Positions 503-829 are shown, counted from the first letter of the stretch. The stretch is DNA of 1,840 nucleotides from Escherichia coli (GCF_003334255.1 NZ_QOWU01000146.1), one strand, 5' to 3'. Notes: generated from the letters alone by a model not told the origin. Translations and numbers: made by a program.

Positions 503-829
503 ATGAAAAGACGCCTTTTACTACTTTTTCTGTTATCTGTCCTGGCAGTGGGATGCTCGCAGCAAAAAGCTGATGAGCCCCGGCAATTAGTGACGGTGTA
601 TCCACGATATCCGGAATATGCTGCAGCAAATTATATCAAGGGGCTGGTTGAGGTTAAGTTCGATATTGGTGCTGATGGGACTGTGACACGGATCGTTTTT
701 CTCCGCTCAGAGCCTCATAATTTGTTTCGTGATGAAGTGGTGAAGGCCATGGCGAAATGGCGATTTGAAAAGAATCGCCCCTGTCAGGGAGTGAAGAGAC
801 AATTTATCTTTACGCCGTCACGTCCTTGA
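503..829 (+). CDS. Predicted lipoprotein consisting of a TonB C-terminal-like domain (108 aa)
   Basis: ATG at 503 is preceded by AGGA at 493-496 (6-nt spacer); stop TGA at 827-829. N-terminus MKRRLLLLFLLSVLAVGCSQQ has a basic n-region, a hydrophobic core and a lipobox-like AVGC, with Ser at +2. The remainder (VYPRYPEYAAANYIKGLVEVKFDIGADGTVTRIVFLRSEPHNLFRDEVVKAMAKWRFE) matches the conserved TonB C-terminal pattern (YP motif, G-x-V-x-V-K-F-D, D-G-x-V, P-x-N-x-F, E-V-x-x-A-M-x-x-W-R-[YF]-E), compared from memory with E. coli TonB. The GTG at 449 offered by the ORF track adds 18 residues with no RBS and would bury the signal peptide. Confidence 0.8.
   Translation: MKRRLLLLFLLSVLAVGCSQQKADEPRQLVTVYPRYPEYAAANYIKGLVEVKFDIGADGTVTRIVFLRSEPHNLFRDEVVKAMAKWRFEKNRPCQGVKRQFIFTPSRP

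Follow-up and report, generated by a model that had tools for sequence, protein, structure and literature searches.

[quoted passage not shown] It belongs to the TonB_C domain family and is not a TonB. We propose, with a probability of roughly 45%, that it may act as a TonB mimic tethered to the outer membrane, which would compete with TonB for the TonB boxes and would thereby exclude TonB-dependent phages and colicins. The window, that is, the whole stretch of DNA analysed here (1,840 bp), is part of this prophage, which may be partly degraded; the chromosome of strain G1/2 matches the window at 100% identity, and at least 80% of it is present in 420 complete genomes. The same prophage also contains three tRNA genes (Ile, Arg, Arg) 3' of the antiterminator, several lysis-region pseudogenes (YdfR, DUF1737) and, upstream of the window, the anti-adapter gene iraM (2464-2799 of locus L002).

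The gene and its translation signal are the following:

503-829, plus strand: coding sequence of the 108-residue, putatively lipid-anchored TonB_C protein, from the ATG at 503 to the TGA stop codon at 827-829, included
493-496, plus strand: Shine-Dalgarno sequence AGGA, 6 nt before the ATG; the phage 21 record has a ribosome-binding site at the equivalent position

The RefSeq coding sequence has identical coordinates (WP_000830178.1, 'TonB family protein'), and a longer reading frame starting from the GTG at 449 was rejected, as it is not kept in the other allele. The identical protein goes by other names elsewhere: phage 21 has it as 'TonB C-terminal domain protein', prophage Perceval as 'TonB fragment' and phage ev017 as 'Partial tonB-like membrane protein encoded within prophage CP-933N'. 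The object itself is thus known, since annotations have shown both gene and odd architecture from the EDL933 genome onwards, and the existence of the gene is not surprising to a specialist; the TonB_C gene was already listed as a moron in 2023 (PMC9928086). The preliminary description of this DNA had presented the architecture as unusual, which we consider overstated, since the gene is present in 1,617 of 5,426 complete E. coli genomes (~30%; UTI89, ATCC 25922, O157:H7 and LF82 are among the carriers), has been annotated since EDL933, and short TonB_C proteins, whether secreted or lipidated, are frequent. Nevertheless, NCBIfam has no family dedicated to the protein, the PADLOC defence models gave no match to it, none of the O157:H7 proteome and transcriptome papers that mention CP-933N includes the TonB_C gene, and no functional study of a TonB-like lipoprotein from a phage or prophage emerged from the literature searches.

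The assignment to the TonB_C family is based on profile, alignment and predicted structure. The profile match is the following:

599-799, plus strand: Pfam TonB_C match (PF03544, E = 9.1e-13), residues 33-99

The TIGR01352 (tonB_Cterm) profile scored 47.4 bits, against a cut-off of 27.1, and residues 151-230 of E. coli TonB (PDB 1u07, 2gsk and 2grx) align without gaps, with ~40% identity (E about 1e-14). With the alignment offset of +127, the protein keeps the fold-defining TonB residues Tyr163, Pro164, Phe180, Phe202, Trp213 and Phe230, while Tyr215 is replaced by phenylalanine. An AlphaFold2 model, built from 27 sequences, has a pLDDT above 90 across the domain, and its structured part extends approximately from residue 28 to residue 104, including the beta3 edge strand Gly96-Phe103 (TonB 223-230). 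Foldseek superimposed this model on 1u07_A with an rmsd of 0.6 Å over 77 columns (TM 0.84), on 2gsk_B, the TonB chain of the BtuB complex, with an rmsd of 1.0 Å (TM 0.90), and on 2grx_C, the TonB chain of the FhuA complex, with an rmsd of 0.8 Å. The predicted fold thus has the succession of elements of the TonB CTD, namely a helix, a two-stranded hairpin, a second helix and the beta3 edge strand, and the protein shares with the CTD of E. coli TonB (P02929) the YP motif, the aromatic core and the edge strand, at 0.6-1.0 Å from the three experimental structures. The preliminary description had proposed a lone TonB C-terminal domain and had suggested a profile search and a structural superposition as checks; both agree with that proposal. 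Two features of the family differ from TonB: Lys99, which is nearly invariant and corresponds to Val226 of TonB in beta3, and the motif Ser69-Glu70-Pro71. Both are family-specific and may set a narrower specificity. We also observed, among the best HMMER matches, proteins of 480-1,300 amino acids with 3-6 separate TonB_C-like stretches, which constitute tandem arrays (P0036, P0043, P0047 and others).

The N-terminal part of the protein has no counterpart in TonB and is divided as follows:

503-556, plus strand: type II (lipoprotein) signal peptide, with an MKRR n-region, a 12-residue hydrophobic core and the lipobox Leu14-Ala15-Val16-Gly17-Cys18
557-592, plus strand: short tether, Ser19-Val30, with no proline-rich spacer; the ungapped alignment to TonB 151-230 starts at Asp24

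The codon of Cys18 occupies positions 554-556, with predicted cleavage at LAVG|C18 and a serine at position +2. The sequence complies with the PROSITE lipoprotein rule PS51257, {DERK}(6)-[LIVMFWSTAG](2)-[LIVMFYSTAGCQ]-[AGS]-C, which also demands the cysteine at 15-35 and a lysine or arginine near the N-terminus, so that the lipobox, the predicted cleavage before Cys18 and the +2 serine of the preliminary description hold. Gly17 and Cys18 are unchanged in all E. coli variants, and Cys18 also in the relatives at 35-46% identity. The +2 residue is serine, alanine or threonine across variants and relatives and never aspartate, and sorting to the outer membrane by the Lol system is therefore expected from the +2 rule of E. 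coli; we infer from these sequence features that the protein is lipidated and outer-membrane sorted. Between Cys18 and Pro26, which aligns with Pro153 of TonB, there are only seven residues, Ser19-Glu25 (SQQKADE), and thus no spacer, and the distance from the cysteine to the PxYP motif is constant, at 15-16 residues, in the phage-borne relatives. The absence of spacer and anchor noted in the preliminary description therefore holds: the N-terminus is a lipoprotein signal, with nothing that matches TonB before residue ~150.

The same comparisons separate the protein from genuine TonB. The full-length TonB equivalogs NF008080-NF008084 gave at best 69.2 bits, against a cut-off of 315, with only the C-terminal 80-85 profile positions covered, and the uncleaved N-terminal anchor by which TonB is coupled to ExbB/ExbD is absent, as no alignment to TonB is obtained before that residue. 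The protein is not a TonB, since equivalog cut-offs, membrane anchor and proline-rich spacer all fail. In contrast to TonB, it has no N-terminal anchor, ExbB/ExbD coupling or spacer, its predicted lipid anchor is in the opposite membrane, and it is encoded by a phage.

The older annotations, in which the words 'partial tonB-like', 'TonB fragment' and 'truncated' appear, would fit a dead remnant of a captured tonB gene, a reading that is effectively refuted by several observations. There are two allele groups in E. coli, with DNA identities of at least 99% and of about 73%, and comparison of the coding sequence with the O157-type allele gives a dN/dS of 0.12 and a dS of about 1.5, synonymous sites being near saturation; the gene is thus under strong purifying selection. 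The lipobox is unchanged, and the best 80 relatives in IMG/VR all have the same short length (80/80 match residues 1-106 or 1-108). Moreover, an exhaustive HMMER search retrieved short relatives with 35-46% identity and the same plan (lipobox, short tether, TonB_C) in other genera, and the gene has its own expression, as described below. That homologues might always be full-length TonB, with this gene a 5'-truncated fragment of one, had been raised at the outset as the finding that would overturn the first interpretation; it does not apply, given the uniform length of those 80 relatives and the lipobox and tether kept by the more distant ones. The short relatives include 139 cluster members from Salmonella enterica, with one sequence on at least 1,000 contigs, and 155 from the Klebsiella pneumoniae complex, and extend to Gibbsiella, Erwinia/Pantoea and Rahnella. 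Some of the distant ones are chromosomal, in ordinary neighbourhoods (Gibbsiella, and unplaced metagenomic contigs).

The gene is located between the lysis genes (Rz/Rz1) and cos/terminase, a place where phage 21 also has bor. The slot and its edges are defined in the window by the following features:

1-191, plus strand: 3' end of the i-spanin gene Rz (RefSeq 'lysis protein'), upstream edge of the slot
up to 129, plus strand: 3' part of the o-spanin gene Rz1, embedded in Rz in another reading frame
952-1131, minus strand: 59-residue ORF (RefSeq WP_000253883.1), matching phrog_4843 end to end (E = 3e-46)
1193-1443, minus strand: ORF without annotation, with the signal-peptide-like start MKIRNILAISLATSSFSCLA
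1593-1604, plus strand: lambda-type cosN 12-nt cohesive end GGGCGGCGACCT, downstream edge of the slot
from 1788: terminase small-subunit gene (RefSeq annotation)

Position 1592 of the window coincides with the end of the phage 21 genome record. The function label of phrog_4843 is 'unknown function', and the phage 21 annotation has different, plus-strand ORFs at 952-1131; for the ORF at 1193-1443, PHROG and NCBIfam searches gave no match.

We examined how the slot is occupied in other phages. Rz is upstream, on the same strand, in 74 of the 76 viral loci with enough upstream sequence. What follows the gene depends on the allele: in 26 of 26 viral loci with allele A it is the small minus-strand ORF of phrog_4843 and then a Nu1-type terminase; in 23 of 29 loci with allele B, a YnfO-family gene is found with an HNH endonuclease and another type of terminase, and a few loci are recombinants. 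The YlcI/YnfO-family gene of allele B is on the minus strand, at the place equivalent to that of the phrog_4843 ORF. The Salmonella-type relative is found between a DUF2514 spanin gene and HNH/Terminase_4, and the Klebsiella-type relative is preceded by holin, GH108 endolysin and spanin-like genes and followed by a Terminase_2/6 module, while a related Klebsiella phage copy is in the same slot and is followed by HNH, small- and large-subunit terminase genes. The slot is thus kept across several phage backbones, which is the behaviour of a moron, and in fact the gene sits between functional modules and is present or absent among otherwise related phages.

The position next to the lysis cassette brings up an accessory role in lysis, which was also suggested by the PHROG label, since phrog_1267 ('Rz-like spanin', lysis category) matches the protein end to end (E = 5e-43). 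A predicted outer-membrane lipoprotein whose gene is directly 3' of the lysis cassette would be compatible with such a role, which we nevertheless regard as very improbable. A complete Rz/Rz1 pair is already present upstream, and the protein has neither the N-terminal membrane helix and coiled coil of an i-spanin, nor the ~60-residue proline-rich lipoprotein form of an o-spanin, nor the C-terminal membrane helix of a u-spanin; after the signal peptide we found a globular TonB_C domain and no membrane helix. In addition, the gene is transcribed in lysogens in which the lysis genes are silent (PMC9928086). The name 'Rz-like spanin' is most likely a mistaken family name for phrog_1267, and could be passed on to other genomes via PHROG-based annotation.

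Expression in lysogens is documented for the identical protein of prophage Perceval, LF82_160, a moron expressed 8-fold over the prophage background, with log2 values of 5.0-6.6 in 10 of 10 samples, while the endolysin, Rz and two terminase genes that flank it stay at 2.3-4.4 (PMC9928086). Spontaneous induction is not the cause, as the neighbouring late genes would then rise too. Transcription in the lysogen is thus independent of the neighbouring phage genes and, together with its place between modules and its patchy presence, makes the TonB_C gene a prophage accessory (lysogenic-conversion) gene, a moron. Since it is on the late-gene strand, expression would also be expected late in lytic growth.

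A candidate for the signal behind this transcription is found immediately upstream of the gene:

473-488, plus strand: conserved 16-bp island ATTGTCAGAATAAGAC, that is, ATTGT(C/T)AGAATAAGAC, common to the 15 distinct sequences upstream of the gene in the two alleles

The island has a single variable position (C/T), while the rest of the spacer has diverged, and resembles an extended -10 element, with TG at 475-476 followed by CAGAAT at 478-483, a hexamer that reads TAGAAT in the other allele. From this conservation a promoter function appears plausible, and is consistent with the independent transcription in the LF82 lysogen; a generic promoter scan gave nothing on the plus strand. A scan for Fur boxes upstream of the gene gave at best 11 of 19 positions, which is chance level, and we make no claim of Fur control. 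The best Fur-box-like match of the window is at 1544-1562 (15 of 19 positions, a score reached by 3 of 300 shuffles of the window); it adjoins cosQ and is ~100 bp upstream of the minus-strand ORF at 1193-1443.

Further upstream, between the Rz stop codon and the TonB_C gene, the non-coding block at 203-370 is ~90% identical across loci whose TonB_C coding sequences are only 73% identical. Of the phage records, 432 contain the block, lambda and many Stx phages among them, and most of these lack the TonB_C gene, which is in only 15 phage records; the block is therefore not specific to the gene. We noticed in it a nested hairpin at about 300-346 (CACCGGG..ACCGCG-loop-CGCGG..CCCGGTG); a search of the block against Rfam gave no match at E <= 1, the fold z-scores were -1.1 and -2.1, and the differences between alleles do not have the look of a coding signature. 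A 45-residue ORF at 348-485 on the plus strand (hypothetical CPT_21_72 of phage 21) was also considered and is probably not a gene, judging from the indels that break its frame in the O157-type locus; it has no PHROG match.

Having the gene as a moron between Rz/Rz1 and cos, a context that the preliminary description had missed, makes a decoy function biologically sensible. We hypothesize the following mechanism. A tether of roughly 10-13 residues would hold the copy of the TonB CTD just below the outer-membrane barrels. Fold and open beta3 edge strand of TonB are kept, and beta3 is the strand to which the TonB box of a TonB-dependent transporter pairs. As the protein has no link to the ExbB/ExbD motor, it could fill TonB boxes without delivering force, and so compete with TonB; the boxes occupied would be those of the transporters or those of imported group B colicins and similar toxins. 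The entry of TonB-dependent phages (T1/phi80-like), group B colicins, microcins and albomycin would then be reduced or blocked, at the price of some loss of siderophore and vitamin B12 uptake.

There are two precedents for this mechanism. Periplasmic TonB fragments comprising residues 33-239, 103-239 and 122-239 inhibit TonB-dependent transport (bioRxiv 10.1101/2020.01.05.895219), and the lipoprotein Llp of phage T5 jams the TonB-dependent transporter FhuA, to which it binds on the periplasmic side (bioRxiv 10.1101/2022.06.28.497910). The engineered, dominant-negative fragments share with the phage protein a periplasmic C-terminal region of TonB without the energy-coupling anchor; they are artificial, soluble, overexpressed and longer, whereas the phage protein is natural, predicted to be lipid-tethered, restricted to the CTD and modestly expressed.

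The ability of the domain to accept a TonB box was addressed by docking, for which the mature domain and the TonB-box peptide of BtuB were joined by a (GGS)6 linker and modelled with AlphaFold2, with a composition-matched scrambled peptide as control. The tethered TonB box was modelled as a beta-strand exactly at DTLVVT, with a block pLDDT of ~75, and the scrambled peptide also as a strand, with a pLDDT of ~52-62. Since the scrambled peptide forms a strand too, the models suggest an open, strand-accepting edge and only weak specificity.

Other observations speak against the mimic, among them the solubility, overexpression and greater length of the inhibitory TonB fragments. Arg158, Gln160 and Arg166 of TonB, residues implicated in transporter contacts, are not kept, and are replaced by Thr31, Tyr33 and Tyr39. 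An upstream Fur box is absent. Furthermore, a general competitor should cost iron uptake, yet ~30% of E. coli carry the gene, so that the effect, if it exists, would have to be weak, dose-limited or target-specific.

With respect to metal uptake, we also noticed that phage 21 (21967-24502 of its record) and Perceval have sitABCD, a TonB-independent Mn/Fe importer, after their tail-fibre genes. The pairing of a TonB competitor with a TonB-independent metal importer in one phage is suggestive. A functional link to sitABCD was rejected as a general feature, since the prophage of the window, which is inserted next to potB, is without sit.

In another possibility, the protein would act, as Llp and Cor do, on a single TonB-dependent transporter, the receptor of the carrier phage itself. 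It would then block superinfection by relatives and prevent the loss of progeny on cell debris, with no general competition with TonB. A periplasmic action of phage lipoproteins on transporters is established (Llp/FhuA). The gene directly follows the lysis genes, on the strand of the late genes, and should thus also be made late in infection, and Lys99 and Ser69-Glu70-Pro71, unlike their counterparts in TonB, could encode the specificity. The likeness to Llp (T5) and Cor (T1, phi80, N15) is that of small phage outer-membrane lipoproteins that act periplasmically on a TonB-dependent transporter. Nevertheless, their folds are unrelated to that of the TonB_C lipoprotein, whose proposed target is the TonB box and not the plug, and known Llp/Cor genes adjoin receptor-binding genes, while this gene adjoins lysis genes. 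The gene family is also found on at least three different packaging modules. A PHROG search with the protein gave only phrog_1267 and phrog_34172 and no Llp or Cor family, and we found no conserved disulphide of the Llp/Cor type, the only other cysteine, Cys94, being an arginine in other variants. Taken together, we consider self-exclusion of this kind quite improbable.

The TonB_C domain might also serve in the envelope without any relation to TonB boxes. Peptidoglycan binding by the TonB CTD has been reported, and the domain could be a peptidoglycan-binding or beta-strand-augmentation module, affecting envelope stability, serum survival or host interaction, like the neighbouring lipoprotein Bor. 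TonB_C is found in many architectures other than TonB (multi-domain proteins, and the NCBIfam matches AgmX/PglI and LIC_10042), and the chromosomal, non-phage short lipoproteins of Gibbsiella and metagenomic contigs, with the related short forms of Erwinia/Pantoea and Rahnella, would also fit such a role. The slot is shared with bor, both genes being carried by phage 21 and Perceval, and Bor/Iss of lambda-like prophages share with the TonB_C protein the condition of an outer-membrane lipoprotein moron, placed between Rz and cos and expressed in lysogens. However, there is no kinship in sequence or fold between them, the genes are on opposite strands, and bor is strongly induced in macrophages (log2 fold change 7.1), whereas the TonB_C gene is not (0.26) (PMC9928086). 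Moreover, the closest relatives of the domain are genuine enterobacterial TonB CTDs, with ~40% identity and sub-ångström rmsd; such nearness to TonB in sequence and structure would not be required of a generic scaffold and counts against the envelope role, which we see as unlikely.

Returning to the TonB mimic, a broader formulation would be that temperate phages of Enterobacterales have repeatedly kept a captured TonB CTD, retargeted by a lipobox, for broad-spectrum jamming of rival phages, group B colicins and microcins; we offer this only tentatively and regard it as possible though doubtful.

If the mimic fails, the gene still codes for a widespread, selected and lysogen-expressed predicted lipoprotein. 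A lipid-anchored phage mimic of an energy transducer would be a variant within a group already known, that of phage lipoproteins directed at TonB-dependent transporters, and would add energy-transducer mimicry to the receptor jamming of the Llp/Cor type. In the broader formulation it would be the first superinfection-exclusion or toxin-tolerance factor that imitates an energy transducer, and would be at work in about one third of E. coli strains. If the mimic holds, a prophage gene that is very common and has relatives in the prophages of Salmonella and Klebsiella would modulate the TonB gateway, the route of entry for siderophores, vitamin B12, many phages, colicins, microcins and siderophore-antibiotic conjugates. 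Consequences would then be expected for host-range prediction in phage therapy, for competition by means of colicins and microcins in the gut and for the susceptibility to 'Trojan-horse' antibiotics.
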